From Microcystis aeruginosa NIES-843 (GTDB lineage: Bacteria; Cyanobacteriota; Cyanobacteriia; Cyanobacteriales; Microcystaceae), in the NCBI RefSeq assembly GCF_000010625.1, contig NC_010296.1:3360001-3392000 (forward strand): a DNA stretch of 32,000 nucleotides, given 5' to 3'. The notes under the pieces are model-generated. The model made no database searches, was not told where the DNA came from, and saw nothing but the letters and a program-made list of their open reading frames with translations. A program made the position numbers and the translations under genes. Positions within the stretch are counted from its first letter, which is position 1, and each line of letters opens with the position of its first letter. Shown here piece by piece: positions 1-26,941 of this stretch.

Positions 1-457
1 TCATGTACCAACCGCCCACTTCTGGCAAACTCAGCAATCGTAAGGCTGTACCCGTGGGTGCGGAATCGATAATCAACACATCATAAGTACCCTCATCGTA
101 GTGGCGTTTCATGCGAACTAAGCCGAAAATCTCATCCATTCCGGGTAAAATCGCTAATTCTTCCGCTTGCACTCCATCTAAACCCCTAGCTTGCAATACC
201 TGAGTAATGTAACGTTTTACTGCGCCCCAGTTGCCTTCCAATTCCATTAGTGCGTCTAATTCTGCCCCCCAAAGATGGGGACGTACCAAACGAGGATCGT
301 GACCTAATTCGAGATCGAAACTGTCAGCGAGAGAGTGAGCGGGATCGGTGCTGAGAACTAGGGTTTTATAGCCAAGTTCGGCGCAGCGGAGTCCTGTAGC
401 GGCGGCGACGGAGGTTTTACCCACGCCTCCTTTACCGGTCATGAGAATTACACGCAT
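1..457 (-). CDS. ArsA/GET3-family ATPase, N-terminal part (gene continues beyond window start)
   Basis: Reverse translation from the ATG at 457-455 gives [47 protein letters not shown]...[17 protein letters not shown]. This shows the deviant Walker A GKGGVGKT plus the DPAHSL and DSAPTG motifs typical of ArsA/Get3. The frame is open to position 1. It is absent from the ORF track because it runs off the edge. Confidence 0.8.
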
Positions 458-531
458 GGGGGCTGATTCTAAGAAAATTTACATTACTTATTCTTATTAT
501 GACGGGAAAGTTAACAAATTGAGGACAAGAA

Positions 532-951
532 TCAGCATTCTTGGCTAGAAAATTCCACTCCCCGACCATCACCCCGGGGAATTAGGCTCTGTTCAAAAAA
601 TTGCTGACAGCGATTTTCGGCATCAGCGACGAGAACTTTAGCAAAATGACCCTTTTCGAGAACTTCTTGCCTCGGACGTTGTTCGTAGGCATAGATAATC
701 AAAATATCTCCTGGTTGACAGAGCAGAGCCGCACCACCGTTGGGGCAAATTTCCCCGGTGTGGCCGGGAAAAACGTAGGTGGAAAAGCGCTTACCATTGC
801 TAAGATTGACCACATCCACCTCTTCAAGGGGCAAAATACCGACCCGCTCAATCAATTCTCGATCGATAGTGATACTGCCGACATAATCGACGTTAGCCTC
901 GCTGACGCGCACTCGATGGAGTTTGGCGTGCATTAATCGAATTGTTCCCAT
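532..951 (-). CDS. panD: Aspartate 1-decarboxylase (pyruvoyl-dependent)
   Basis: 139-aa ORF beginning [30 protein letters not shown]. It carries the K-(L/I)-H-R-x-x-V-T/S motif and the Gly-Ser self-processing site (VGS) characteristic of PanD. The length is typical. Confidence 0.9.
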
Positions 952-988
952 GTATTTTTTCCTATTTCCCCCAATTACTTCAATTATT

Positions 989-1816
989 ATGCTCTCCCAG
1001 TGGGAATGTTTACTAAAAAATCTCGGTCAATGGCAAGGTTCTTTTACCCGTCTGTCTCCCCAAGGCGATCTGATCGAAGATACCCCGACTTTGGTATCTT
1101 TGCAAGGCGTTAATAATAATCGATCAATTCGTCAATTGGTCCGCCGTCTCTACAGCGATCGAGTGCCAGAAGATTTGATTTTAGAGTATAGTTCTCTCCA
1201 TCAGGGTATTCTATTTAGCCAGACGGGAGCTTTTTGCCAAGGTTCTCTATATTTTAGTAGTTTTTCCTCACAATTCGGGGCAGAATTTGGGTTAATCTCT
1301 GGAGAAAGACGATTAAGAATCGTACAGTTATTTAATGAGCGCTGTGAGTTCGATCGCTTGACTTTAATTCGGGAAAAGTTAGTGGATTCTCAGTCACCAG
1401 AAAGACCGATGTTATCGGTGGAGCAATTACTGGGTCAATGGCGAGGACAGGCGGTGACAACGGGACGCGATTTTTATAATTCTCCTGCCTATTCTACCCA
1501 TGTATCGATCGAGCGTCAGGGGGATAATTATCTCTCGCAAACTTTGACTTTTGGCGATAGTCAAATTACTTCTAGCGCTCGTATTGAGGGACAAAGATTG
1601 TTGTTTGAAAATAGTCCGCTGCCGATTCAAATCCTGCTGCTGCCCGATGGAGCCTCCTGTAATACACCTCTGAAAATTACTGCCGGTCATCGTTTTGTTT
1701 TAGAGGTGGGTTGGTTACTTTCTCCTACTCAAAGACAGCGCTTAATTCGTTCTTATAACGAGAAGGGAGAATGGACAGGTATTACTCTGGTGACAGAGGA
1801 AAAAGAAAGCTATTAG
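989..1816 (+). CDS. DUF3598-like conserved cyanobacterial protein (function unknown)
   Basis: The ORF-track frame is 923..1816. I place the start at the internal ATG 989 ([26 protein letters not shown]...). The upstream 22 codons overlap the panD start and encode a low-complexity FFLFPP stretch. The N-terminal WExxLxNLGxWxGSF pattern matches my memory of DUF3598, unverified. Confidence 0.55.
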
Positions 1817-1901
1817 CCGTCAGCCGTCAGCTAGATTGATAATAAAAAGGAAATTGACTAATTACACTGAAAAATATCGGGTTTCTCCTAAACATGAATT
1901 A

Positions 1902-2055
1902 TAAGTAAGTAGTTATAATTAAATTGAAGATAGATTTTGCCTCAGATCCCCCCTGCCCCCCTTGATAAGGGGGGTGCCGATAGGCGGGGGGATCCCCCCT
2001 TAATCCCCCCTTAATAAGGGGGGCATCTGATAATTTTTAACGACTACCTACTTAA
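1902..2055. mobile_element. MITE-like repeat, family A, copy 1 (G6/C6 hairpin-rich)
   Basis: Starts taagtaagtagttataattaaattgaagatagat and ends ...tttttaacgactacctacttaa. The termini are inverted (CTAAGTAG / CTACTTAG). The interior has CCCCCCTTGATAAGGGGGG-type hairpins. The same element recurs at 3782-3923 (inverted) and 30316-30411. Confidence 0.7.
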
Positions 2056-2634
2056 CTGGATTTGGTATCTTCTCCTTGCTCGGAGACTTGCCAAAACAAC
2101 AACTTTGTACTTCACCAATAAGATAACTGCGATAAGAAACTGAATGCTAAGGGCTAATTTATATAAGCAAAATTTATCAAAATCCCAATATACTTGAGAA
2201 GATTTAAATTTACATTCCTTCATCTTTACTTTTCTTAAAAAATAATTGAGAAAAATTCCTATTTGTCAACGAGATTGCAATAGTTACAGCCCGCTGCTAA
2301 AATCTAAGAATTGGGTTACTCTGTGCATTTTTAGTCCTTGTGCCTTGAAACCCTTACCACGTCTAGGATTACTAATTAGTCCCTGGTAAAAACTTGCCAA
2401 TTGCTCCTTTGACGAAAAAGATCTTTTGCCAAAAATATGTGTACTTATGTTAAAACGAAAAAGTTTTTTTGACAAAATGTACCAGATATGCTGCGAGAAA
2501 AGTCTCCAGATTAGCTACTGGGGGTGGGAAACTGTTAACTATCTAGGGTTTGCGGCAAAAAGTTTGTTGGTGGGGGCGGGGGTGTGGAAGGAACCACAGA
2601 GACACAGAGGACACAAAGATTGATCACTCCTATA

Positions 2635-2852
2635 TAGGGCTTGCTGAAAAAGTTTTTCTTGGGGGCAGGGTGTGGGGTGTAGGGTGTGGGGTGTAGGGTT
2701 TTACCCATTTTCAGGTGGTCAATTACCTAATTTTCAGGGAAAAAGTCCAGGAATTTTCCCCGCGCTCACTCCAATCCCTGGCACTTTTGGATTTCAGAAA
2801 AGCCTAAAAATCTGATCCAACAAGGTTTTTAGATTTATTCAGCCAGTCCTAC
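2635..2852. mobile_element. MITE-like repeat, family B, copy 1 (contains GGTGTGG/GGTGTAG heptamer run)
   Basis: tagggcttgctgaaaaagtttttc...(gtgtggg/gtgtagg)n...caattacctaattttcagggaaaaagtccagg...caacaaggtttttagatttattcagccagtcctac. The reverse complement aligns along its whole length with 18318-18540. The termini are inverted: TAGGnnnnGCTGAA. Confidence 0.65.
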
Positions 2853-2917
2853 CTTTTATTTGTCAGATTGATTGGATATGTCTAGGTTTTGCACGATCAA
2901 TCAAGGGACCAGTATCT

Positions 2918-3700
2918 TTAACCAAAAAGTAAATTATGGAGGATTTCTAAACGCCGGTCATCTTCACGGACAATAGCACCATAATAATTTTTTTTATTCT
3001 CTAGCCAGAGTAATTCAAACTCGATCGCCTTTGGCAAAGCTAAACTGAAATTATCCAAAGCTTGGGGACAATCAAAGATAACTTTGCGCGTCTCGAAGCG
3101 GTCAAAATGTCCTTGGCAGAACATTTTGAAAAACGGTAAAGAATGCAGTGACACCCCACCCCCAATGGCAACAGTCAAACCGGCAGCCTTAGCTTTTTTT
3201 GCCAAAGGTAAAGCCAGAGCCAAAACTTGCTCGCTATTCACATCCTGACGGGTTAATCCCAAAGAACAGGCTAAATCCATCCGTCCGATGACGATACCAT
3301 GGAGAGATTTTATCTCTGGAATCGCCAACATTTCCTGAAAATTCTCACAGGCTGTAATCGTTTCGATATTAACTAATAGCTCCACATCTTCCACCCCTTG
3401 GTCAGCTAAAACCCTCCTGGCTGCCCGCAGATATTTTTGTAAAGCGTAGGCTGTTTCTACCATGGGAGCAATCAAGCGATCGACTCCTAAATTAACCCCA
3501 TCAAAGATATCTCTGATCGCTTCGCAACCGGCGATTTTCAGATTAAAATCTACCCCCGCTTTCAGACTAATTTCTTTCAACCGCATCGCTTCCGTCAATC
3601 GGGTTCCTTCCGTCTCGAATTCCGCTTTTACCCCCGAAACATGGTGATCTTCCCTGAGTTCTCTTAACAGTTGCACCATTTTTTTTTCTAAGCAATTCAT
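2918..3700 (-). CDS. HpcH/HpaI aldolase / citrate-lyase-beta-like TIM-barrel protein
   Basis: 260-aa ORF. The segment LVNIETITACENFQEMLAIPEIKSLHGIVIGRMDLACSLGL resembles the E-x-x-x-A-v-x-N...G-x-x-DL-s-x-s-lG core of the HpcH/HpaI aldolase family. Assignment is by motif recall only. Confidence 0.55.
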   Translation of the reverse strand: MNCLEKKMVQLLRELREDHHVSGVKAEFETEGTRLTEAMRLKEISLKAGVDFNLKIAGCEAIRDIFDGVNLGVDRLIAPMVETAYALQKYLRAARRVLADQGVEDVELLVNIETITACENFQEMLAIPEIKSLHGIVIGRMDLACSLGLTRQDVNSEQVLALALPLAKKAKAAGLTVAIGGGVSLHSLPFFKMFCQGHFDRFETRKVIFDCPQALDNFSLALPKAIEFELLWLENKKNYYGAIVREDDRRLEILHNLLFG

Positions 3701-3781
3701 GATTTTAATCGTTCACAATCGGTAACTGCTAGATCAGCCTTGTTGATTATAGCCGATCCGCGAAAAGCCGATAGCTGAGGA

Positions 3782-3923
3782 CTAAGTAGGTAGGTGTTAA
3801 AAATTGTCAGATGCCCTCTTATTCAGGAGGGATTAAGGATGTGCCGATCCCCCCTTATCAAGGGGGGGCAGGGGGGATCGAACCCAAAATCTATCTTCAA
3901 TTTAATTAAAACCAGCTACTTAG
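3782..3923. mobile_element. MITE-like repeat, family A, copy 2 (inverted relative to copy 1)
   Basis: ctaagtaggtaggtgttaaaaattgtcagatgcc...ccccccttatcaaggggggg...tcttcaatttaattaaaaccagctacttag. This is the reverse complement of the 1902-2055 pattern. It lies in the divergent promoter region between the aldolase-like gene and aspS. Confidence 0.7.
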
Positions 3924-4058
3924 GAAACCATAAAAATACCCTAAACAAGGGGACAAGAGCGACAAAATACCGGCATAATGAACAAGGCCGTCTGATTTTT
4001 TTCTGGCCACATCCTTTCTATACTACATTCGTAATATAAGTAATTCTCTAGTTAGACT

Positions 4059-5846
4059 ATGCGAACTCACTACTGTGGCGACCTTAGCGCGATCGAAATT
4101 GAAAAAAGTGTCACCCTCTTCGGTTGGGTCGATCGTCGTCGCGATCACGGTGGCGTTATTTTTATCGATCTACGGGATCGCAGTGGTATTGTCCAGATCG
4201 TCAGTGATCCCCAACGAACCCCCGCTTCCTATCCCATTGCTGAAACCGTCAGAAACGAGTATGTCCTCAAGGTGACGGGAACAGTCAGTCAAAGGCCTAC
4301 CGAATCCCTTAACCCGCGCATTGCCACCGGAGAAATCGAAATTTACGCCACTAGCATCGAGATTCTCAACGGGGTTACTAAACAACTGCCTTTTGTCGTC
4401 TCCAGTTCCGAAAGTGAATCGGTCCGGGAAGATGTGCGCTTGCGATACCGCTATCTAGACCTACGCCGGGAGCGTATGAGTCAGAATTTACAACTACGTC
4501 ACCAAGTTGTCAAGGAAATGCGCCGTTTTCTCGAAGATGAACAGCATTTTATCGAAGTGGAAACGCCAATTTTAACTCGATCGACTCCCGAAGGGGCGCG
4601 GGATTATCTGGTTCCTTCCCGTGTCAACCCTGGCCAATGGTACGCTTTACCCCAATCACCGCAACTATTTAAGCAATTATTAATGGTGTCGGGAATGGAT
4701 CGCTACTATCAAATCGCCCGCTGTTTCCGCGATGAAGATCTGCGCGCTGATCGTCAACCGGAATTTACTCAGTTGGATATGGAGATGAGTTTTCTCTCTT
4801 TACCTGAGATTTTAGCCCTAAATGAGGCTTTAATCGCTCATATCTTCAAAAAAGTCAAAAATATCGATATAAGCCTGCCCCTGCCCCGTTTAACCTATGC
4901 TGAGGCTATGGATCGCTATGGGATCGATCGCCCCGATACCCGTTTTGGCTTGGAATTGGTCAATGTGGCGGAGATTTTTGCCGATTCGGGATTTAAGGTG
5001 TTTTCAGGTGCGATCGCTAGTGGTGGGACGGTGAAAGTTTTACCGATTCCCAACGGTAACGAGGCGATTTCTAACGTCAGAATCAAACCGGGTGGGGATT
5101 TATTCAAAGAAGCCACCGATGCGGGGGCGAAGGGAATTGCCTATATCCGCGTGCGCGAGGACTACGATTTTGATACCATCGGTGCGATTAAAGATAACCT
5201 GACAGAGGCACAAAAACAGGCTTTAATCGAGAAGACTGGCGCAAAACCGGGGCATCTGCTCTTATTTGGGGCGGGAGATACCGATACAGTCAATAAATCC
5301 CTATCCCGCCTACGCCTAGTTTTAGGGGAACAATTGGGATTAATTGATCCGGAGAAAATCAACCTCCTCTGGGTGACGGATTTCCCGATGTTTGAATACA
5401 ACGCCGAGGAAAAACGCCTCGAAGCATTGCATCACCCCTTTACTGCCCCTAATCCCGAAGATTTAGAGGATCTAGCCCAGGCTCGCGCCCTAGCCTACGA
5501 TATGATTTTTAATGGTATTGAAATCGGTGGCGGCAGTTTGCGGATCTATCAACGGGAAGTACAGGAAAAAGTCTTCGCCACCATCGGTCTATCCCCAGAG
5601 GAAGCCTATAATAAATTCGGCTTTTTGTTAGAAGCTTTTGAATACGGAACCCCTCCCCACGGTGGCATCGCCTACGGTTTAGATCGCTTGGTGATGTTGT
5701 TAGCGGGAGAAGAATCGATTCGCGATGTGATTGCTTTCCCGAAAACCCAGCAAGCTAGTTGTTTACTCACTTCTGCACCTTCAACAGTGGCAGCGAAGCA
5801 ATTAAAGGAATTATCCGTTGCTTCTACCTACAAACCGCCATCCTAA
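4059..5846 (+). CDS. aspS: Aspartate--tRNA ligase (class IIb; probably the non-discriminating type, as usual in cyanobacteria)
   Basis: 595-aa [12 protein letters not shown]...[22 protein letters not shown] (OB anticodon-binding domain). It also has [39 protein letters not shown] (class II motifs 1-2) and GGGSLRI...[15 protein letters not shown] (motif 3). Confidence 0.97.
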
Positions 5847-5897: not shown

Positions 5898-6137
5898 TTA
5901 AATTCTTTTCTGCCCTCACTTCATCCTCTTTAGCAGTGGCTAAAAATTCCTAGAGTTTAGTTTTGGGAACTAGGGGAAAAGTGCAGGGTAAGCGCATCTT
6001 AACAATCCTTGACAATTGTTAAGCAAAAATCGACCAAATGGGTCGAGTTCGCCCCTACAAAATCGACCCGCCTAAGGGCGGGAAAGAAAAGAAAAAATAG
6101 GGAATGAGGGTAAAAAGGGAAAAAAAGGGGAAAAGGG
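5898..6137. repeat. Repeat R, copy 1: conserved structured 3' flank of the FGE-sulfatase-domain gene
   Basis: 5898-6097 is identical by eye to 10048-10247 (200 bp). A purine-rich tract (pyrimidine-rich on the gene strand) follows and differs only by small indels. It abuts the stop codon at 6138-6140. Confidence 0.85.
6025..6046 (-). terminator. Candidate intrinsic terminator inside repeat R (gene strand)
   Basis: On the minus strand: TCGACC-cattt-GGTCGA followed by TTTTTG. The stem is only 6 bp. The same sequence occurs in copy 2 at 10175-10196. Confidence 0.4.
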
Positions 6138-8756
6138 TTACAGAGTCCTCCCAGCACCGCACACCACCCGAAAACCGTGGTCGGAGCTGACGTTGACGCG
6201 GCGGTCGTGGTCGTTGCGGTAAGCAGAACGGCAGTTAGAAGGATAGAAGTACCAGGAACCGCCCCGCAGAGGAGAACGATTATCATCCCCATTTTCTATC
6301 CAGACACTGCCATCCGTCGGCGCATCCTTATAGTTATCGTGCCAAGTATCGGCACACCATTCCCAGACATTTCCGTGCATATCATAGAGTCCGAAAGCGT
6401 TGGGGGGAAATTTACCAACGGGGGTGGTTTCTTGACGATAAACACCTTTGGGTCCCTGAGCATAAATAGAGAAGTACCAGGAACCGCCCCGCAGAGGAGA
6501 ACGATTATCATCCCCATTTTCTATCCAGACACTGCCATCCGTCGGCGCATCCTTATAGTTATCGTGCCCAGTATCGGCGCACCATTCCCAGACATTTCCG
6601 TGCATATCATAGAGTCCGAAAGCGTTGGGGGGAAATTTACCAACGGGGGTGGTTTCTTGACGATAAACACCTTTGGGTCCCTGAGCATAAATAGAATTGC
6701 CGTCGTAGTTGGCTAAATCCGGGGTGATGGTTTCCCCGAAATAGAAGGGAGTGGTGGTTCCTGCACGACAGGCATATTCCCACTGCGCTTCCGAGGGGAG
6801 GCGATAGTCTCGTCCCGTCGCTTTCGAGAGTCGCATACAGAATTCCACTGCAGCGTACCAAGAGACTTGTTCAACGGGGCGATTATTGCCAGAGAACTTA
6901 GAAGGATTTAAGTCAAGGTCACATTCAATTTTTGGCAGGGAGGCCACTGCTTTCCACTGGGCCTGAGTGATGGGATATTTGCCCATAAAGAAGGCAGGAA
7001 CGGTCACTAGATGTTGGGGACGTTCGTTATCATTTCCTTGTCCATCGGGTGAACCCATCTTGAATTGTCCTGCTGGAATAGCGACCATTTCCAGGGTGAC
7101 ATCATTGCCCAAGTTTTCTGTAAAATACTGCGCTGGTTTCTTTTCCCGTTTGACTTCCTTGCCTCGACTATCGACGGTGACAGCTTGAAAATCAAAAAAT
7201 TGAGCATTACTAGGTAATTGACGACGGAGTTGGTTAAGTTGAGAATGATTGGGATAACGTTCCAACGCAGCATTAAGGTTCGATAAAGCTTCTTGCAATT
7301 GACCTGAATTCAGCAATTTAATGCTACGTTGGTAAAAAGATTCAGCACTCAATTGTTCTGACAATAAACCTTTAACTTGAGTAGCAAGCTGACGACTTTC
7401 TAGTTCTGCCAAACAGTGATGTAATTTATTAAAATACACTTCATCTGCTACGGTAACAACAGGTTTCATCGCTTTAATCGCTTGCTCTAAATTATTAGGA
7501 GGATTTATCCCCCGCAATCGCAACCAAGACTTAACGGAATAATCTAGCTGTTCTCTTGCCCAATTTTTATCAGGCAAAGCAGTTAAACTATCAGCTAAAT
7601 CTAATGCTAATTCAGGCATCCAAGCGGGGCGTTCATTTTCTAAAGCCTCATAAACCTGACGATAGCCAGAAACGATAGTCTTTAATAACTTAGGATCATC
7701 AATACCTCGCATTAAATCGGGTATAAGCTTAGGCAAAATGGGCGGGACATTGTGATGAATTAGGTAGTGAATATCGGCAATCCAACCGCCTACCAGTGAT
7801 TGACATTTGACTAAAAACTGACAGAGATATTCAAAATCCTTAGCCGTAACTTTATACGGTTGAGTCGCTAAATCACTGCTATCGATTCCCGCACTCTTGA
7901 GAGCTTCTTCGTCTTGTAAAATTTTCAAATTAAAGGCATTATCACTCCCATATTGCCGATCAATTTCCTCCAAAGATTTATTTAATTGTTTTGCCAGTTG
8001 CTCTCTTTTTTCTCGCCATTGTCTTGCTCTAATTTTAACAGATTCATAGACAACTTCTCGATAGGGAAGATTAGAAATAATCGATTGATAAAAATATTTT
8101 TGCTGTCCTTCTCCCCAATAGCCCACATTAAGATGAAGATAATCCCCATCAATTTGGGACTCTAAAATTAACATGGGTTCAGATTTTAATAAGGCAAAAA
8201 GACCTATAATAGCCGCACCACCATGATAGCGTTTACTATCCCATCCACCATCAATTAGTTCGATCGGTCTTTCGGTACTTTGAAAAGAATAATGTTGATT
8301 AAAAAATTCCCGTAATCCTTGCGCTAAACCAGTTTCAATATTAGGAAAACTTTTGTTGTTGCCACCAAATTGATCAAAATCGATAACAGGAGGTGCGGGA
8401 ATTATTCTCAGAGAAATTAAATTCTCATCATGATTAGCATTCAAAATTTGATCGGGAACAATTCTCAAAGGCCAGTTTTGAAATAATTTCTGATCTTGAA
8501 CAACTTGACGGGCAGTATTTCGTTGTTCTAGGGCTACTTTTAACTGAGTTTGACGGTTATCTTCAGCAAGTTCTTTCTGCAATTGCTTCTGTTTTTCAAA
8601 TTGCTCTCGCTGAAATTCCTGATTATTTAATTGTTGCCATTTTTGAAATTCCTGTCGCTTATCTTCCAGTTTTTCCGTTGCTTGTCTCGCCAATTGACTA
8701 TTAATTAAATTGATAACCCCATTAACAACATAAAATCCCATTATTTCAGCAGTCAT
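6138..8756 (-). CDS. 872-aa protein: uncharacterised coiled-coil/alpha-beta N-terminal region (~550 aa) + C-terminal FGE-sulfatase (SUMF1)-like domain with an internal 75-aa duplication
   Basis: The C-terminal third (about 6141-7100) reads LEMVAIPAGQFKMGS...RPQHLVTVPAFFMGKYPITQAQW...YRLPSEAQWEYACRAGTTTPFYFG...FGLYDMHGNVWEWCAD...RGGSW, the classic FGE-sulfatase domain pattern. The N-terminus has a Gln/Glu/Lys-rich coiled coil (residues ~20-90) and then sequence I cannot assign. A GGAG-containing RBS precedes the ATG. There is a 28-bp gap to the upstream peptidase gene. Confidence 0.85.
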   Translation of the reverse strand: MTAEIMGFYVVNGVINLINSQLARQATEKLEDKRQEFQKWQQLNNQEFQREQFEKQKQLQKELAEDNRQTQLKVALEQRNTARQVVQDQKLFQNWPLRIVPDQILNANHDENLISLRIIPAPPVIDFDQFGGNNKSFPNIETGLAQGLREFFNQHYSFQSTERPIELIDGGWDSKRYHGGAAIIGLFALLKSEPMLILESQIDGDYLHLNVGYWGEGQQKYFYQSIISNLPYREVVYESVKIRARQWREKREQLAKQLNKSLEEIDRQYGSDNAFNLKILQDEEALKSAGIDSSDLATQPYKVTAKDFEYLCQFLVKCQSLVGGWIADIHYLIHHNVPPILPKLIPDLMRGIDDPKLLKTIVSGYRQVYEALENERPAWMPELALDLADSLTALPDKNWAREQLDYSVKSWLRLRGINPPNNLEQAIKAMKPVVTVADEVYFNKLHHCLAELESRQLATQVKGLLSEQLSAESFYQRSIKLLNSGQLQEALSNLNAALERYPNHSQLNQLRRQLPSNAQFFDFQAVTVDSRGKEVKREKKPAQYFTENLGNDVTLEMVAIPAGQFKMGSPDGQGNDNERPQHLVTVPAFFMGKYPITQAQWKAVASLPKIECDLDLNPSKFSGNNRPVEQVSWYAAVEFCMRLSKATGRDYRLPSEAQWEYACRAGTTTPFYFGETITPDLANYDGNSIYAQGPKGVYRQETTPVGKFPPNAFGLYDMHGNVWEWCADTGHDNYKDAPTDGSVWIENGDDNRSPLRGGSWYFSIYAQGPKGVYRQETTPVGKFPPNAFGLYDMHGNVWEWCADTWHDNYKDAPTDGSVWIENGDDNRSPLRGGSWYFYPSNCRSAYRNDHDRRVNVSSDHGFRVVCGAGRTL
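6245..6694. repeat. Tandem in-frame 225-bp duplication (2 copies) inside the FGE-sulfatase-like domain
   Basis: 6245-6469 and 6470-6694 differ at 2 of 225 positions. Each encodes SIYAQGPKGVYRQETTPVGKFPPNAFGLYDMHGNVWEWCADT(W/G)HDNYKDAPTDGSVWIENGDDNRSPLRGGSWYF. Confidence 0.95.
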
Positions 8757-8784
8757 AAGATTTCCTCTCCCAGATCAACTTTGC

Positions 8785-9606
8785 TCAAGTAGTTTTAAAC
8801 GGCCAAGCTTCCGCCGGTTTATCGGTAATTAAAACCTCCCCGGTCAACTGCTCATTTGCCTGTTCAATTTGTGAACAAGACCAAAACTTTTCCTCATAGG
8901 GAAAATTAGAATCAATCCCCTGATAACCAATAACGTCACCATCGAGATTTCGGCTAACATCGGTTAAAGTAATCGCGTGCCAAGATTGAGAATCGGGATA
9001 GGAAATCGGGTCTAAATCGTGGGCATCTCCGACAAAAACCACGGGACGATTCTCATCTAAAGCATTAGCCAATTCCTGATGGTCAAAACTTGCCCAATGG
9101 GAGGGGATATCATAAGAACTCAAAATTTCTTGATAATCTTCAGGATTTAAAGCACCTCCTCGACCGGGATAGTCTATTTGCAGTTGGTCTGAGAAATTAT
9201 TCGTAATGTCGGGATGAAAACACTGGACAATATTTTCCATGGTTTCGTAACCACAGGTTGGCCCCGTTTGTAAATCTGCCAACAAATGCACATTTCCTAA
9301 CCCCGTAAACCCTAATTCTTGATGGGTAATATCATTAATTAAAGCTTCTGGCGATTCATAATGAAAATCCTGATGGCAGTGGGATACATCTTGCCAAGAC
9401 TCATCAGGTTGATAGTTGAAAGTGGCCTCCATAGTCTCATTTTGCCAATTCCAATACTCTTGATTCGGCATTTCCTGCCAACCGCTTTCGGTTTCCGGCA
9501 GATTCACCTCGGTAAAATCTGGGGAAACTAACTCCAAAGCTTGACTATCTAAAGGGTTAAGCAAATAGTCTTCTGGCGCAAAGCCTTGGCCATAGAGGTC
9601 ATTCAT
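8785..9606 (-). CDS. Papain-fold cysteine peptidase, C39-like (predicted), with an acidic/aromatic N-terminal extension
   Basis: 273-aa ORF. Candidate catalytic residues are Gln113...Cys118 (LQTGPTCGYETMENI), His210 (SWHAITLTD) and Asp232 (GIDSN). This is the Q-x4-C-G ... H-hydrophobic ... D order of C39-like peptidases. A GGAGG RBS lies 7 nt before the ATG. The first ~110 aa are rich in Glu, Asp, Trp and Gln and appear domain-free. Confidence 0.6.
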   Translation of the reverse strand: MNDLYGQGFAPEDYLLNPLDSQALELVSPDFTEVNLPETESGWQEMPNQEYWNWQNETMEATFNYQPDESWQDVSHCHQDFHYESPEALINDITHQELGFTGLGNVHLLADLQTGPTCGYETMENIVQCFHPDITNNFSDQLQIDYPGRGGALNPEDYQEILSSYDIPSHWASFDHQELANALDENRPVVFVGDAHDLDPISYPDSQSWHAITLTDVSRNLDGDVIGYQGIDSNFPYEEKFWSCSQIEQANEQLTGEVLITDKPAEAWPFKTT

Positions 9607-9868
9607 GGTCGCCTCCGCTCCTTGACTGGGGCTATTTTTTAACCTAGAGAATCGGCATCACTAAGTATTTATACTTCGATGATACTCCCAACCCATGAAA
9701 GTCTAGTCTGGACGTTGATAAAAGTTAACTGATGTTGACAGCCTCGGATTTTGGGCGCAAGGCTTCACTGGTGTTAACTTAACGGTTGAGATTCCCTGTT
9801 TTTTTGATGGGTAACAATAAACCTCTCGCATAATTGATTTTTGAGGATTCAAAAACGTCAAAAAGGCG

Positions 9869-9934
9869 GATTAACTGGCAGAAAATCTCTAAATAAACCA
9901 TTTAATTGATTATTACTCATTCTTAATTCTCCTG
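9869..9934. repeat. Repeat U, copy 1: conserved 66-bp block upstream of the peptidase operon
   Basis: gattaactggcagaaaatctctaaataaaccatttaattgattattactcattcttaattctcctg equals 11686-11751 with one mismatch. On the gene strand it reads AGGAGAattaagaATGAGTAATAATCAA... Confidence 0.85.
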
Positions 9935-9977
9935 TCTCCTGTCTCCTGTCTCCTAACGACCGGCTCCTGACTCCTAA
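9929..9977. repeat. STRR-type heptamer array (CTCCTGT/CTCCTGA/CTCCTAA)
   Basis: ctcctgt x3, then ctcctaa, a 7-nt interruption, ctcctga and ctcctaa. The period is 7. Confidence 0.8.
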
Positions 9978-10047
9978 CCCCACCAACAAACTTTTTCAGC
10001 AAACCCTAGTTAATTATTTTCAGCTAGTTGACTAACAACCCATGCTC

Positions 10048-10291
10048 TTAAATTCTTTTCTGCCCTCACTTCATCCTCTTTAGCAGTGGCTAAAAATTCC
10101 TAGAGTTTAGTTTTGGGAACTAGGGGAAAAGTGCAGGGTAAGCGCATCTTAACAATCCTTGACAATTGTTAAGCAAAAATCGACCAAATGGGTCGAGTTC
10201 GCCCCTACAAAATCGACCCGCCTAAGGGCGGGAAAGAAAAGAAAAAAGAAAAAATAGGGAATGAGGGTAAAAGGGGAAAAAGGAAAAAGGG
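10048..10291. repeat. Repeat R, copy 2: conserved structured 3' flank of the TIR-FGE-sulfatase gene
   Basis: Offset of 4150 bp from copy 1. 10048-10247 is identical to 5898-6097. It abuts the stop codon at 10292-10294. Confidence 0.85.
10175..10196 (-). terminator. Candidate intrinsic terminator inside repeat R copy 2 (gene strand)
   Basis: Same TCGACC-cattt-GGTCGA-TTTTT sequence as 6025-6046. Confidence 0.4.
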
Positions 10292-11650
10292 TTAGAGAGT
10301 TCTCCCGAAAACGCAGGCTACCCGAAAACCGTAATTGTTGATGCGGTTGACGCGGCGGAAGTAGTAGTCGTAGCGAATCGCGGAACGGCAGTAATTAGGA
10401 TTGTAGCCCCAGGAACCGCCCCGCAGAGGAGAACGATTATCATTACCATTTTCTATCCAGACACTGCCATCCGTCGGCGCACCGTCATAGTTATCGTGCC
10501 AAGTATCGGCGCACCACTCCCGGACATTGCCGTGCATATCGTACAGTCCAAAGGCGTTTGGGGGAAATTGTCCCACGCGAGTTGTTTCGTTTCGATATTC
10601 TCCGTTCGGTTCATCGGCGTAGGTATTACTGGCATTGTAGTTAGCCAATTCCCCCGTAATGGTTTCCCCAAAGTAAAACGGGGTGGTGGTTCCAGCACGA
10701 CAAGCGTATTCCCATTCCGCTTCACTCGGTAGTCGGTATTCCCGAACCGTTAGTTTTGATAATCTCGCACAGAATTCGATCGCATCGTACCAGTTGACTT
10801 GTTCCACGGGACGGCGATCGCTATCGGGACGGTCTTTAAAATAGGCTGGCTTGAAATCAAGGTCTTGTTTAACTTTTAAATCCGTGCGAGAGGCGATCGC
10901 TTTCCACTGGGCCTGGGTGATGGGGTATTTACCCATAAAGAAGGGTGGGACAGTTACTTCATGTTGTGGTCTTTCCCTTCTAAATCCTTCCCAATTAAAT
11001 TTTTTAACCAGTCTTTCGATTTCCTCATCTTCTGTTCCCATCAGGAAAGTTCCCCCCGGAATGGCGACCATTTCTAAGGTGATGCCTTTGCCCAGATCTT
11101 CCCTGAAATATTGGGACTGTTTCGACTCTTTTCTAATTTGCTCACCCTTCGCATTTACTCCCACCACCTCAAAGTTAAATACTGATAACAGTTGTTTTGG
11201 CTCTTCCGGTTCAAGCTTGAACTGATAGCCAATTGCTCTTTCTAGTTGCTCAAATCCGTCTTCTTCCCAATAATCAAGCCGGTGAATATCTCGCAGATTC
11301 AAGCTAACTTCTGCAAGTCGCAGATCAGGAATTTCGCATTCTTCTAACCTCATGGGAATAAAAAAAATTGTCCCCGGTAGCATCTCTCCCAAGGTATCAA
11401 GTGCAATCCTCAACTCCCGTTGGATGTATCCCTGCTTATTAGCTGATTTCGCTGACAGACAGGCGAGAAAAATCTGACTAGCTTTAATCGCTTTCGGAAT
11501 TTCATCTCGCCAAATTTGACCCGGAATCAGGTCTTTTTTATCCAACCAAGGTTTATATCCCGCTTGCTTAAGGCGGTCATACAGTGCCAAAACTGCTGGT
11601 TTGTCCTCACTGGCATGGGCCAAGAAAATTTGGATCTCTGACTTTTTCAT
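10292..11650 (-). CDS. TIR domain + FGE-sulfatase (SUMF1)-like domain fusion protein
   Basis: The N-terminus IQIFLAHASEDKPAVLALYDRLKQAGYKPWLDKKDLIPGQIWRDEI...IFLACLSAKSANKQGYIQRELRIAL is a bacterial TIR (TIR_2-type) pattern with candidate catalytic Glu79. The C-terminal part (about 10295-11090) is a paralogue of the 6138-8756 C-terminus (LEMVAIPGGTFLMG...RPQHEVTVPPFFMGKYPITQAQW...YRLPSEAEWEYACRAGTTTPFYFG...RGGSW). Confidence 0.9.
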   Translation of the reverse strand: MKKSEIQIFLAHASEDKPAVLALYDRLKQAGYKPWLDKKDLIPGQIWRDEIPKAIKASQIFLACLSAKSANKQGYIQRELRIALDTLGEMLPGTIFFIPMRLEECEIPDLRLAEVSLNLRDIHRLDYWEEDGFEQLERAIGYQFKLEPEEPKQLLSVFNFEVVGVNAKGEQIRKESKQSQYFREDLGKGITLEMVAIPGGTFLMGTEDEEIERLVKKFNWEGFRRERPQHEVTVPPFFMGKYPITQAQWKAIASRTDLKVKQDLDFKPAYFKDRPDSDRRPVEQVNWYDAIEFCARLSKLTVREYRLPSEAEWEYACRAGTTTPFYFGETITGELANYNASNTYADEPNGEYRNETTRVGQFPPNAFGLYDMHGNVREWCADTWHDNYDGAPTDGSVWIENGNDNRSPLRGGSWGYNPNYCRSAIRYDYYFRRVNRINNYGFRVACVFGRTL

Positions 11651-11685
11651 AACTTTTTCTTATGACCACAAGTAGGGGAGAGCCA

Positions 11686-11751
11686 GATTAACTGGCATAA
11701 AATCTCTAAATAAACCATTTAATTGATTATTACTCATTCTTAATTCTCCTG
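11686..11751. repeat. Repeat U, copy 2: conserved 66-bp block upstream of the TIR gene
   Basis: gattaactggcataaaatctctaaataaaccatttaattgattattactcattcttaattctcctg. See 9869-9934. Confidence 0.85.
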
Positions 11752-11892
11752 ACTACTGTCTCCTGCCTCCTGACTACTGTCTCCTGACTACTGCCTACTG
11801 TCTCCTGACTACTGCCTACTGTCTCCTGACTACTGTCTCCTGTCTCGGAGTCTCCTGACTACTGCCTACTGTCTCCTGACTACTGCCTACTG
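11746..11892. repeat. STRR-type heptamer array (CTCCTGA/CTACTGC/CTACTGT), ~21 units
   Basis: ctcctga ctactgt ctcctgc ctcctga ctactgt ctcctga ctactgc ctactgt ... The period is 7, with one short interruption (ctcggag). Confidence 0.85.
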
Positions 11893-13561: not shown

Positions 13562-13942
13562 ATGGAGAGTAAAGTTTATGATAAAGCTTATAAATTTGCC
13601 ATTAGGATTGTTAAAGGCTATAAATATTTGTGTGAGACTAAACAAGAATATGTTTTGTCAAAACAGCTATTAAGGAGTGGCACTTCAATCGGGGCTAACA
13701 TTGCCGAGGCTAATGGAGCTATTTCTCAAGCTGATTTTCGAGCTAAAATGTCAATAGCTTATAAGGAATGTCTAGAAACAAAGTATTGGCTGTCTCTATT
13801 GAAAGACACGAATTACATAGAGGAAAGAGCCTTTCAAAGTATCAATGATGATGCGGAGGAAATTGGTAAAATGCTTTGGGCTATTCTAAAAACCTGCCAA
13901 GAAAATACCAAAAACCAAAAACTGATAACTGATAACCGGTAA
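13562..13942 (+). CDS. Four-helix-bundle protein (23S rRNA intervening-sequence protein / Avd-like family)
   Basis: 126-aa ORF with Y.KAYKFAIRIVK...LSKQLLRSGTSIGANIAEANGA.S..DF..K..IA.KE..ET.YWL.LL. The R-S-x-x-S-I-x-A-N-I-A-E motif is diagnostic for this family. Confidence 0.85.
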   Translation: MESKVYDKAYKFAIRIVKGYKYLCETKQEYVLSKQLLRSGTSIGANIAEANGAISQADFRAKMSIAYKECLETKYWLSLLKDTNYIEERAFQSINDDAEEIGKMLWAILKTCQENTKNQKLITDNR

Positions 13943-20929: not shown

Positions 20930-21078
20930 TTTTTTTTAGTTTTTAACCCTTTCTCTCTCCTATTATAGGCATCCTAAAAGGGTTTTTTCGCCCAAATAGT
21001 GAAGAAAAACCGAATATCTCCGGCTGCTTCTTTGATTTTTTTTCTTTGAAAACTTCTCAAAAAAAAAGGAGTAATCCC

Positions 21079-21107
21079 TTGACTTGGGCGGCGGCTTCGG
21101 TTATACT
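21079..21107 (+). promoter_or_regulatory. Sigma70-type promoter candidate (repeat unit 1)
   Basis: TTGACT, a 17-nt spacer, then TATACT. It is preceded by an A-rich tract (ctcaaaaaaaaagg). A perfect TATAAT follows 5 nt downstream (21113-21118). Confidence 0.5.
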
Positions 21108-21263
21108 TTTCTTATAATGGGAATCCGTGCATTTTTCAATAGACTCCAACACTCCATTATATATAAAGTCTTATAAAAATATTATGGCAAAAAGCCCTGA
21201 AAAAAGCAAGCCTCTTTGATTTTTTTTCTTTGAAAACTTCTCAAAAAAAAGAGGAGTAATCCC

Positions 21264-21292
21264 TTGACTTGGGCGGCGGCTTCGGTTATACT
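21264..21292 (+). promoter_or_regulatory. Sigma70-type promoter candidate (repeat unit 2)
   Basis: Same TTGACT-17-TATACT arrangement as unit 1, followed by TATAAT. Confidence 0.5.
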
Positions 21293-21523
21293 TTTCTTAT
21301 AATGGGAATCCGTGCATTTTTCAATAGACTCCAACACTCCATTATATATAAAGTCTTATAAAAATATTATGGCAAAAAGCCGTGAAAAAAGCAAGCAAAA
21401 TTTTGCCGACAATTGTTAAAAAAGTCGGGCTAGTTTTCCTTACAGGATGATATGACTTTAAACCGGTTATTTCTCGGTTATCCAAGCGGTAAACTTTGAT
21501 TGATGATAAATTGGGGACGTAAG

Positions 21524-21552
21524 TGACGGAGTTTGCGTCTCTTTGTTATAAT
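21524..21552 (+). promoter_or_regulatory. Candidate proximal promoter of the antitoxin/toxin pair
   Basis: An extended -10 TGtTATAAT sits at 21544-21552, with gTGACGg 17-18 nt upstream. A second TATAAT lies at 21566-21571. It is ~65 nt before the antitoxin ATG. Confidence 0.35.
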
Positions 21553-21615
21553 TCAAAGGCTAGGCTATAATAACTCTTCATAAACACCGATAATTTTAGT
21601 CAAAGATGTAAAAAA

Positions 21616-21867
21616 ATGAATATTCAACTCGTGGAATCTCTAGTTAAGGCAATTAAATCCTTGTCCCTAGAAGAACAAGAATTGTTAGGAAAAAAACTCA
21701 AAGATCACCCCTCTTGGGAAATTGCATTAGAACGAATTGACGCAACTCGAAAAGCCATTTATGAACGTCGTCAGGGAAACCCATTTAAAACCGATGTTAC
21801 TGAAATTATTCATCAAATGAGAGAAGAAAGAGATCGGCAATTGATGGAAGAAATTGTGAGTGAATAG
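21616..21867 (+). CDS. Putative antitoxin partner of the PIN toxin (family not recognised)
   Basis: 83-aa ORF that ends 8 nt before the PIN-domain gene. The size and position are typical of a type II antitoxin. I recognise no DNA-binding fold from the sequence. Confidence 0.55.
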   Translation: MNIQLVESLVKAIKSLSLEEQELLGKKLKDHPSWEIALERIDATRKAIYERRQGNPFKTDVTEIIHQMREERDRQLMEEIVSE

Positions 21868-21875
21868 AGAAAATA

Positions 21876-22307
21876 ATGACTAATACATTTATCTGTGTTG
21901 ATTCTAGTTTTATAGTTCGTTTAACAACGGTTGAACCTTCTGTAACAATGTACAGTCAACTCTGGCAAAAATGGATGACCGAGGAAAATTTAGTGATTGC
22001 ACCAACTTTATTATGTTACGAAGTCACTAACGTATTTTATCGTCTGAAAAAAGCTGGTCAAATTTTGGAGACGGAAGCGCAAACCCTCCTTACAGAAGTC
22101 TTAGATTTACCCATTCAGTTTCATGGAGATCATTACCTCCATTACCAAGCAATAGAAATTTCGCAAACCTTGAATCTTCCTGCTACTTATGATGCCCATT
22201 ATCTAGTATTAGCTCAACGATTTCAAGCAAATTTATACACTAGCGATAAACGCTTATTTAACAGCGTTAAATCTTCTCTAAGTTGGGTTCATTTGGTTGA
22301 AGTGTAG
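21876..22307 (+). CDS. vapC: Type II toxin, PIN domain (VapC family)
   Basis: 143-aa ORF with the four PIN acidic residues in the canonical order: D9 (ICVDSSF), E49 (CYEVTN), D106 (TYDAHYL) and D124 (LYTSDKRL). Confidence 0.85.
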   Translation: MTNTFICVDSSFIVRLTTVEPSVTMYSQLWQKWMTEENLVIAPTLLCYEVTNVFYRLKKAGQILETEAQTLLTEVLDLPIQFHGDHYLHYQAIEISQTLNLPATYDAHYLVLAQRFQANLYTSDKRLFNSVKSSLSWVHLVEV

Positions 22308-22375
22308 ATTTTTATTTCTCTCTCAATAGCTTTAGTTTTATTTAACCTGACTAGGCAGTATGCTTAGAAAAGCAC

Positions 22376-22538
22376 AAAAGTCGAGCTAGTTTTGCTTACG
22401 GGGGGATATGACTTTAAACGGGTTATTTCTCGGTTATCCAAGCGGTTGAGAGAAGAAAGAGATCGGCAATTGATGGAAGAAATTGTGATAGAGAAAATCA
22501 TGACTAATACATTTATCTGTGTTGATTTTAGTTTTATA
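22376..22538 (+). pseudogene. Decayed second copy of the antitoxin/toxin locus (leader fused to antitoxin 3' end + first ~13 toxin codons)
   Basis: 22376-22446 matches the leader 21420-21490. 22447-22538 matches 21818-21914 (antitoxin codons REERDRQLMEEIV, then MTNTFICVD.SF) with a 5-nt deletion. Homology stops where the palindromic element at 22546 begins. Confidence 0.75.
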
Positions 22539-26536: not shown

Positions 26537-26941
26537 TCAGTCATCCTTAGATGTGCCATGCTCGGTGATGCCGCTAATACTAGCATTACCCGTGCCAGAG
26601 GTAGCAGCATATTTAACATTACTGATATTTTGGGTGATAATTTGTTGTCCACCGGGTTGTTCTTGGAGCTTGTCTAGTAAATCTTGGGCTAATTTAGTGA
26701 TTTCATTATCTTTATCAACCCCCGCTTCGACAATTTTATCTTTTAACAAACCTTCAGCTTTCTTGATATCCTCTGGTTTTGCCTCTACCATTGCCTGTGC
26801 TAAAGCATCATTAGCAAACTTACGCTTAATCAAGGTTTTCAAACCTTGATATGTATCTTTAACGCCTTTTTCCGCCGTATCTTTAGCCGCAGCAACCGCA
26901 CCGGCAGTCAAGGCGGCGATAATCAGAGAAACTGGTTCCAT
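26537..26941 (-). CDS. Small helical protein with a hydrophobic N-terminal helix and a C-terminal motif shared with the downstream STAND ATPase (candidate Bell/HeLo-like effector)
   Basis: 134-aa ORF. Residues 3-19 (PVSLIIAALTAGAVAAA) are hydrophobic and Ala/Gly-rich. The middle is a Lys/Asp/Glu/Ala/Leu-rich sequence of helical character. The tail is QNISNVKYAATSGTGNASISGIT. The stop is 22 bp upstream of the STAND start on the same strand. Confidence 0.7.
   Translation of the reverse strand: MEPVSLIIAALTAGAVAAAKDTAEKGVKDTYQGLKTLIKRKFANDALAQAMVEAKPEDIKKAEGLLKDKIVEAGVDKDNEITKLAQDLLDKLQEQPGGQQIITQNISNVKYAATSGTGNASISGITEHGTSKDD

Follow-up and report, generated by a model that had tools for sequence, protein, structure and literature searches.

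The listed targets of diversity-generating retroelements (DGRs), also those in M. aeruginosa NIES-2549, include TIR-lectin proteins as well as lectin proteins that carry an "unknown N-terminal extension" (PMC7517822, Table S3), and Microcystis was the top genus for DGR-diversified lectin proteins in one survey (PMC7517822). Cyanobacterial DGRs have been argued to tune regulatory proteins (Vallota-Eastman et al., PMC7517822), and passages of two further papers describe FGE-sulfatase (FGE, or FGS) domains as DGR-diversified sensors (PMC7159879, PMC8195603). Here we describe a two-gene locus of Microcystis aeruginosa NIES-843, at positions 6138 to 9606 of a 32,000-nucleotide stretch of contig NC_010296.1 (3,360,001 to 3,392,000, hereafter the window). 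Gene A codes for a predicted cysteine peptidase and gene B for a large protein in which an N-terminal domain, which we call the N-module, precedes an FGE-sulfatase domain. With a probability of roughly one half, we read the whole locus as a remote DGR target cassette of the cyanobacterial "variable protein" kind with a peptidase arm supplied in trans. The structural and DGR-target description of the locus is very probably right on the sequence comparisons given below; the specific role assigned to the peptidase is tentative. Domain identities, hypervariability among strains, the cis DGR of a relative and the fact that the two genes stay adjacent were all observed directly.

The transcription unit is composed as follows:

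8785..9606, minus strand: gene A, 273 residues, papain-fold (C39-like) cysteine peptidase by prediction (open reading frame list)
8757..8784, minus strand: intergenic spacer of 28 bp, carrying the purine-rich ribosome-binding sequence of gene B
6138..8756, minus strand: gene B, 872 residues, N-module and FGE-sulfatase domain (open reading frame list; locus tag MAE_37280 in NIES-843)

The reading frames, the spacer and the purine tracts upstream of both genes bear out the description given by a first-pass annotation of the sequence, namely two co-oriented genes separated by 28 bp and each preceded by a Shine-Dalgarno-like sequence (GGAGG about 6 nt 5' of the gene A ATG, GAGAGGA 5' of the gene B ATG). 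No terminator-like site was seen in the spacer, so that the two genes are probably co-transcribed, and two such sites lie 3' of gene B (6082-6067 and 6046-6030). Spacers are equally short (24-29 bp) in homologous pairs. Together with a neighbouring gene coding for a TIR-FGE protein, genes A and B form a triad that adjoins aspS also in M. aeruginosa PCC 9809 and M. wesenbergii FACHB-1317. No papers were found for the NIES-843 locus tags of the two genes.

Variable region of gene B and its link to DGRs

The C-terminal part of gene B and its 3' side harbor four features:

6138..7197, minus strand: beta-hairpin extension and FGE-sulfatase domain of C-type-lectin fold, residues ~520-872 (PF03781, E 2.4e-74, in two stretches)
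6141..6263, minus strand: DGR-type variable region (VR), residues 832-872, from GGSW to the C-terminus (strain comparison)
6245..6695, minus strand: tandem in-frame duplication, 2 x 225 bp with 99% identity (Tandem Repeats Finder), residues 688-762 repeated as 763-837
5898..6137, minus strand: 3' element with a pyrimidine-rich tract, a hairpin CCCGCC-CTTA-GGCGGG (6082-6067) and a second hairpin (6046-6030)

Between NIES-843 and PCC 9809, gene B shows about 31 mismatches in the ~110 nt of 6141-6247, compared with 7 in the ~2260 nt upstream, a roughly 90-fold difference. The VR is different in every Microcystis orthologue (at least 10), while the rest of the gene is nearly identical. Neither this hypervariability nor the duplication figured in the first-pass annotation. 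Within the window, the 3' ends of gene B and of the TIR-FGE gene are identical over ~80 nt upstream and ~230 nt downstream of a stretch of ~110 nt with scattered differences, and the positions at which these two VRs differ are those of AAC/AAT codons in genuine template repeats. A search for the adenine pattern retrieved six metagenomic template repeats, all from other cyanobacteria and none cognate to Microcystis. One of them (L092) belongs to a canonical DGR made up of a caspase-FGE target, bAvd, a reverse transcriptase (RVT_1), a template repeat and a second FGE target; against this non-cognate template repeat, the VR of gene B has mismatches at 20 of 37 adenine sites versus 17 of 99 other sites. 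In Dactylococcopsis (L004), moreover, an N-module-FGE gene whose product is 59% identical to gene B has bAvd, a reverse transcriptase and a template repeat of 130 nt after it; the repeat is 92% identical to the VR of that gene, about 9 of 10 mismatches falling at template adenines. These comparisons suggest that the VR of gene B has been rewritten repeatedly in Microcystis populations by reverse-transcriptase-mediated adenine mutagenesis.

The Pfam match to the FGE-sulfatase family begins at residue 556. Since the NCBIfam enzyme equivalogs score far below their cut-offs (224 of the 500 bits required for PvdO, 67 of 360 for EgtB, 103 of 350 for GldK), the NCBI name "SUMF1/EgtB/PvdO family nonheme iron enzyme" is not to be read as the function of gene B. 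On the 3' side, 200 nt of the element downstream of gene B are 100% identical to 10048-10247, downstream of the TIR-FGE gene, and a hairpin CCCGCC-N4-GGCGGG followed by TCGATT lies downstream of the VRs in Microcystis (gene B and TIR-FGE) and in Dactylococcopsis L004. This GC hairpin, 55-70 nt past the stop codon, could serve as a terminator, in target recognition by a DGR, or in both ways.

The neighbouring cassette and the shared upstream element are:

10292..11650, minus strand: TIR_2 and FGE-sulfatase protein of 452 residues (Pfam, PADLOC), with a homologous VR at ~10295-10414
9861..9980, minus strand: 5' element preceding the peptidase gene and found again ahead of the TIR-FGE gene (11686-11789), with heptamer repeats and a block of ~70 nt

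The FGE domains of gene B and of the TIR protein are ~81% identical at the nucleotide level and have shared flanks, in agreement with the paralogy proposed in the first-pass annotation. However, three Microcystis strains have practically the same VR in the TIR-FGE gene, with one N/T change, whereas that of gene B is different in every strain, and the two adjacent homologous targets thus appear to have had very different diversification histories. This contrast between a hypervariable and a frozen VR could be used to find out which targets a Microcystis DGR services. The ~70-nt block holds a small open reading frame of 20-25 codons (translation [13 protein letters not shown][LM]PVN...) at 9861-9920 and 11687-11737 on the minus strand, present also in PCC 9809, which could be a shared leader or regulatory element. 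Because the two cassettes have both 5' and 3' elements in common, they look like duplicates, which suggests that "TIR" and "peptidase plus N-module" are alternatives placed in front of one type of lectin tip.

The only match to the Avd superfamily in the window is a 126-residue four-helix-bundle protein of the 23S_rRNA_IVP family (13562-13942, plus strand), with a weak match to bAvd (E 0.004). It lies between the membrane-fusion and pump genes of a resistance-nodulation-division efflux system, 2 kb from the TIR-FGE gene, and is split into two 64-residue fragments in PCC 9809.

The N-module and its distribution in cyanobacteria

Upstream of the lectin domain, gene B is made up of three segments:

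8487..8756, minus strand: N-terminal helices, residues 1-90, predicted by AlphaFold2 (AF2) as an amphipathic helix (4-19) and a long Q/E/K-rich helix or coiled coil (22-89)
7353..8486, minus strand: N-module, residues 91-468, with an alpha/beta subdomain (~95-230) and a helical subdomain (~232-468)
7218..7346, minus strand: TPR-like hairpins, residues 471-513 (AF2 helices 471-483, 487-500 and 505-513), between the N-module and the lectin domain

The AF2 model of residues 1-540, built on a 56-sequence alignment, reaches a pLDDT (predicted local distance difference test) of 86 and a predicted template-modelling score (pTM) of 0.81, and ends in the first strands of the lectin domain. It agrees with the earlier recognition of an amphipathic segment, a Gln/Glu/Lys coiled coil and a long region matching no family, which here amounts to ~470 residues and in which the three motifs quoted at that time start at residues 94, 170 and 324. 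The N-terminal helix has low confidence in AF2 and is moderately hydrophobic and amphipathic in 12 of 12 homologues according to a hydrophobic-moment scan. A weak Pfam match to TPR_2 (residues 471-504, E 0.0024) is under the family cut-off, and relatives have clear TPR matches in Pfam. Residues 1-468 gave no match in Pfam, NCBIfam or PADLOC, and a profile of the N-module retrieved only chance matches among PDB sequences, the best being ribosomal protein L17 at E 0.16. When the whole model was searched against PDB and BFVD folds, nothing was found at E<=1e-3, the BFVD result being empty. Among the insignificant matches, a YjjX/VC0702 NTPase-like fold (E 0.025, TM-score ~0.3) was discarded, and the other PDB matches were TPR proteins aligned to the tail; a gasdermin-like or TRADD-N-like identity was likewise rejected, as it has neither structural nor textual support. 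The conserved residues are mostly aromatic or hydrophobic, the few polar ones being E141, R149, E199, S239, R243, N276 and D328.

A search with residues 1-519 found 93 homologous proteins, in which the module occupies residues ~45/90-466 and is followed by FGE-sulfatase, GUN4, WD40, TPR or nothing. A scan over one genome per species with a trimmed 8-sequence alignment gave at least 278 loci, of which the best 80 were retrieved, and 83 loci were examined in total. In both searches the hits are cyanobacterial wherever an organism is named. WD40 is by far the most frequent C-terminal fusion among the 83 loci (74), the others being FGE (3), GUN4 (2) and no recognised domain (4). The N-module thus appears to be a discrete, fold-orphan domain specific to cyanobacteria and so far undescribed. 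The first-pass annotation had regarded the N-terminal region as the novel part of the system; this stands insofar as the region belongs to no described family or solved fold, but not as regards the system, because the module is widespread and mostly fused to WD40 repeats with no peptidase nearby. One class of "unknown N-terminal extension" is hereby resolved into a conserved domain that is modelled with confidence and lacks structural relatives, the same module being wired to WD40, GUN4, TPR or hypervariable lectin sensors.

In the Nostocales, the WD40 form has recurring neighbours, namely genes for a 129-residue signal-peptide protein upstream (40 loci), for an aldehyde dehydrogenase and, downstream, for a PEP-utilising enzyme. 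This synteny is kept in 18-40 loci, and neither a peptidase nor a reverse transcriptase was seen near the Nostocales WD40 form. The N-module gene is also retained in the reduced genome of Trichormus azollae. From its neighbourhood, the Nostocales gene looks like a vertically inherited cellular gene and not like part of a mobile defence island. The 129-residue upstream reading frame was considered as an analogue of the peptidase and rejected, as it codes for a Gly-rich protein with a signal peptide and lies at variable spacing. GUN4, to which some N-modules are fused, is a regulator of Mg-chelatase; the gene right after the Dactylococcopsis DGR (L004, 8976-11765) codes for a CobN/Mg-chelatase H-type subunit, probably a coincidence.

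The peptidase and its pairing with the N-module gene

Gene A is divided into a leader and a catalytic domain:

9301..9606, minus strand: leader, residues 1-102, acidic and disordered (AF2 pLDDT ~30)
8785..9300, minus strand: catalytic domain, residues 103-273 (AF2 pLDDT ~90 over residues 103-268)
9268-9270, 9253-9255, 8977-8979 and 8911-8913, minus strand: candidate catalytic residues Q113, C118, H210 and D232, respectively (conservation)

The leader contains 21 Asp or Glu residues, no Lys or Arg, and 4 Trp within short conserved motifs. When 1.84 billion representatives were searched exhaustively with a profile, 101 relatives of gene A came up, every one matching residues ~95-273. In 69 distant homologues Q113, H210 and D232 are invariant and C118 is more than 90% conserved; in a mixed alignment of 16 sequences it is C118, H210 and D232 that are invariant and Q113 that exceeds 90%. 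All four are invariant or nearly so also among 8 close homologues. The AF2 model has C118 at the N-terminal end of a helix, with H210 and D232 on adjacent strands, the catalytic geometry being judged from this secondary-structure placement and from conservation only. The papain-fold arrangement behind an acidic, Trp-rich disordered leader that had been read from the sequence is therefore matched by positions, conservation, the model and the structural search, and the leader is now delimited to residues 1-102.

With the model as query, Foldseek returned a C39-like peptidase (3erv) as best match (E 3e-5), along with staphopain, PeiR, papain-like contact-dependent inhibition (CDI) toxins and, from PCAT1 and ComA, the C39 domains, with probability 1.0 for 3erv, staphopain and PCAT1/ComA; the matches range from E 3e-5 to 1e-3, with target-normalised TM-scores of 0.55-0.76. 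The protein itself has no match in Pfam, NCBIfam or PADLOC, and none among PDB sequences with either the single sequence or a profile, so that the fold is exposed by structure prediction only. Among the 69 distant relatives, Pfam recognises Peptidase_C39_2 in 8 (best E 5e-6) and BtrH_N in 5, all weakly, and UniProt labels the Microcystis orthologue as "Peptidase C39-like domain-containing protein". Gene A is best described as a predicted papain-fold, C39-like cysteine peptidase; we infer peptidase activity from a fold that also includes amidases and acyltransferases. With the C39 and C39-like peptidases (Pfam Peptidase_C39, Peptidase_C39_2 and BtrH_N; 3erv, PCAT1, ComA), which are its best structural matches, it has in common the papain-like fold and the Gln/Cys/His/Asp arrangement with the Cys at a helix N-terminus. 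Unlike them, it has a 102-residue acidic disordered leader, no evident double-glycine leader substrate and, for the protein of the window itself, a similarity below Pfam detection. A true bacteriocin-processing C39 peptidase is ruled out, because no ABC exporter is fused or adjacent to gene A or its homologues in any context.

The subfamily with the acidic leader is small, with only seven clusters at 90% identity. In 7 of its 8 resolved contexts an N-module gene lies beside the peptidase gene, at protein identities of 54-68% and in two orientations. The peptidase gene is directly upstream of the N-module gene and on the same strand in three Microcystis strains. The two are also on the same strand in L084 (146-bp gap), in L086 from Xenococcus (26 bp), in L096/L097 (24 bp) and in L102 (132 bp), while in Dactylococcopsis (L004) they are divergently transcribed, ~900 bp apart. 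The sole exception is L085, a 3.3-kb contig with toxin-antitoxin genes instead of an N-module gene. The pair thus is conserved as neighbours elsewhere, a point on which the earlier proposal depended, though within a narrow clade. Conversely, a peptidase gene lies within 6 kb of the N-module gene in only 2 of the 83 N-module loci, and the idea of the peptidase as a universal partner of the N-module was rejected for this reason. As the peptidase is beside the N-module in 7 of 8 contexts and the N-module beside the peptidase in 2 of 83, the dependence runs from the peptidase to the N-module and not the reverse, and the peptidase is a clade-specific add-on.

Several of these contexts have features of their own. 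In L085 (1-369, minus strand), the gene divergent from the peptidase gene codes at its start for a comparable leader, acidic, with Trp and poor in Lys/Arg, and after it for a DnaJ-type CxxCxGxG zinc-finger motif; the acidic leader may be a shared module. The flanks of the L102 pair (95-4970 and 8596-11681) form an island-like neighbourhood: on one side are a WD40 protein and a divergently encoded STAND-type NTPase (AAA_16/NPHP3_N), and on the other two unannotated genes, one of them guessed to code for an Hsp70/actin-like ATPase from its N-terminal sequence. More distant members of the peptidase family have hydrophobic N-termini and are encoded singly, amid transposases and integrases or beside a STAND-like ATPase. 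On a 544-kb metagenomic scaffold (L089), one distant homologue, hydrophobic in its N-terminal region, is surrounded by many small genes that lack annotation; the scaffold also carries a thymidine kinase and an ADP-ribosylglycohydrolase and may be a very large phage or other mobile element. The domain content of large distant homologues was uninformative.

Elsewhere in the window, a 134-residue HetE-N protein (26537-26941, minus strand) is encoded directly upstream of a 1233-residue nSTAND1 NTPase (22813-26514), a conflict-type pair. The NTPase has ~14 WD40 repeats, encoded by a 126-bp tandem array of at least 13 copies, and is unlinked to the operon, 13 kb away. Local duplications occupy 21036-22538: 176 nt are present twice (21036-21396), and blocks of 42-71 nt are repeated ~630-950 nt apart around a PIN-domain reading frame (21876-22307), suggesting a duplicated toxin-antitoxin-like module.

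Competing explanations and comparison with known systems

If the locus is a remote DGR target cassette with a peptidase arm, the hypervariable lectin tip of gene B would bind a changing ligand. The N-module would be a signalling or assembly part, because it takes the place that a caspase, TIR or kinase domain has in other variable proteins. Ligand binding could then alter the oligomeric or membrane-associated state of the N-module, in concert with the coiled coil and the amphipathic helix. Gene A would act as a proteolytic arm in trans, recruited or released by the N-module and TPR part through its acidic, Trp-containing disordered leader, and would cleave gene B or downstream targets. The whole would be a split-gene counterpart of the fused orthocaspase-lectin variable proteins, with the cysteine peptidase encoded in trans as a concrete candidate for its output or processing step. 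A bolder version, which we consider quite unlikely, sees in the N-module a new fold acting as a death or signalling effector or adaptor, switched by the peptidase upon capture of a ligand by the diversified lectin tip in the Microcystis-type clade, with the acidic Trp leader as a docking or autoinhibitory element. If true, it would amount to a receptor-protease cascade with an antibody-like mutable recognition domain.

Several observations weigh against the cassette with its peptidase arm. No reverse transcriptase, Avd or template repeat was found in the 32-kb window, and a survey reported only group II intron reverse transcriptases in NIES-843 (bioRxiv 10.1101/2021.01.26.428298). The lectin fold may be destroyed by the 225-bp duplication. 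The conserved residues of the N-module include no evident catalytic motif, PADLOC matched neither gene, and no relatives of either were found on viral contigs. Finally, the conserved Nostocales neighbourhood, with ordinary metabolic genes and without peptidase or DGR, argues for a general cellular role of the N-module and not for a dedicated defence effector. In NIES-843 itself the VR may be frozen, given the missing DGR parts in the window and the outcome of the survey; considering also the 75 additional residues in the lectin domain, the system as a whole may be frozen or impaired in this strain.

The first-pass annotation had proposed a peptidase-effector version of the conflict systems of the Kaur-Burroughs-Iyer-Aravind type. 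Such a dedicated anti-phage system, in which the FGS domain would sense the invader and the peptidase would be the suicide or defence effector, is possible but doubtful. It draws on the description, in passages of PMC7159879 and PMC8195603, of FGS as an invader-binding lectin C-terminal to TIR, caspase and other effectors in cyanobacteria. The immediate TIR-FGE neighbour fits this proposal, as do the transposases, integrases, toxin-antitoxin genes and STAND NTPases around the broader peptidase family, the CDI toxins among the structural neighbours of gene A, and the NTPase and WD40 protein beside the L102 pair. What stands of it is the FGS domain C-terminal to differing front ends in gene B and the TIR protein, with shared flanks. 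What does not stand is a place among the NTP-dependent conflict systems (Kaur et al., PMC7159879), which is ruled out because no core NTPase (MoxR-vWA, STAND or GTPase) is present in the operon or in the conserved Microcystis triad, the AAA_16 neighbour being confined to L102. The empty PADLOC result for both proteins also speaks against a dedicated defence system, as does the N-module itself, mostly a single syntenic gene in the Nostocales that survives in the reduced T. azollae genome. A conflict role is favoured by the TIR neighbour, by the DGR link and by the mobile settings in which the peptidase family occurs, whereas the synteny in the Nostocales favours a cellular role of the N-module; a defence role of the pair is something that we infer and no more.

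That cellular role is at the core of a second explanation, likewise possible but doubtful, in which the N-module protein is a lineage-wide cyanobacterial regulator or scaffold with exchangeable sensors (WD40, GUN4, TPR, lectin), unrelated to defence, and the peptidase is a maturation or turnover protease acquired by one Chroococcales-type clade. The 74 of 83 loci with WD40 fusions and neither peptidase nor DGR are in line with it, and so is the synteny with the aldehyde dehydrogenase, the PEP-utilising enzyme and the small secreted protein in 18-40 loci. The GUN4 fusions suggest tetrapyrrole sensing, and DGRs of cyanobacteria have been argued to act on regulatory proteins (PMC7517822). On the other hand, the literature search tied no phenotype or publication to any N-module member, the diverse C-terminal domains and the targeting by a DGR recall architectures of the conflict type, and the Microcystis gene is in a variable island beside the TIR-FGE gene.

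A third possibility, unlikely in our view, is that the locus of NIES-843 is a decaying relic, its lectin domain inactivated by the duplication, its DGR reverse transcriptase absent and nothing functional left. The duplication is found only in this strain among sequenced relatives, the other Microcystis orthologues having 795-798 residues, and could stem from aberrant retrohoming or replication slippage. Its 3' boundary is two codons into the VR, with the variable codons TAC TTC in both copies. The reported restriction of NIES-843 to group II intron enzymes and the lack of Avd, reverse transcriptase and template repeat in the window fit a relic as well. However, the added 75 residues are in frame with one substitution, neither reading frame is broken, and the differences from M. 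wesenbergii amount to 4 amino acids in the peptidase and 8 in the first 680 residues of gene B, a near-invariance among strains that points to purifying selection; in addition, variable proteins can function without ongoing diversification. It is very unlikely that the two genes just happen to adjoin and work independently of each other, the peptidase being for instance a toxin in its own right or an amidase of the cell wall: the L085 peptidase beside toxin-antitoxin genes, the solitary distant members in mobile contexts and the amidases and acyltransferases of the papain fold, such as PeiR, BtrH and CcbD, would suit it, but 7 of the 8 resolved contexts keep the adjacency, with 54-68% identity between the proteins, two different orientations and gaps down to 24-29 bp, and gene A has no signal peptide or cell-wall-binding domain.

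Among known systems, protease-plus-partner immunity modules, such as bacterial gasdermin with its associated protease, offer an analogy: a cysteine protease accompanied by a larger protein with an N-terminal membrane-seeking helix and repeat or sensor domains. The model of the N-module, however, matched neither gasdermin nor any solved structure, and here the sensor domain is on the non-protease partner. The conflict systems with FGS domains, as far as described in passages of PMC7159879 and PMC8195603, are closer. As in gene B, FGS is a C-terminal sensing or "neutralising" domain with the effectors always N-terminal to it, and the DGR link, the enrichment in cyanobacteria and a paralogous cassette with another effector (TIR) are in common. 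Unlike those systems, genes A and B come without a vWA-MoxR, STAND or GTPase core or a recognisable effector-associated domain (EAD), and the N-module is not among the domains named in these passages.

The cyanobacterial DGR variable proteins of C-type-lectin/FGE-sulfatase type (Vallota-Eastman et al. 2020, PMC7517822; Wu et al. 2018, PMC5758913) are the closest. Gene B shares with them the VR at the extreme C-terminus of the lectin fold, substitutions that lean towards the adenine sites of a non-cognate template repeat, hypervariability among strains, and a variable N-terminal domain ahead of the lectin, with a TIR-lectin paralogue next door; its Dactylococcopsis relative has Avd, reverse transcriptase and template repeat in cis. 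It differs from them in that its N-terminus is a defined module of ~380 residues, also found fused to WD40, GUN4 and TPR, and that the protease is a separate, probably co-transcribed papain-fold enzyme and not a fused C14 orthocaspase; unlike in DGR systems, no reverse transcriptase is present in the window nor, as reported, in NIES-843. On account of the fold, the position of the VR, the hypervariability in populations and the DGR in cis in an orthologue, the operon is best filed with these variable proteins. DGR-diversified lectin proteins are abundant in bloom-forming cyanobacteria and this target class was already known; what is new in the present locus is the N-module as a cyanobacteria-wide fold-orphan domain, together with its predicted papain-fold peptidase partner in trans.

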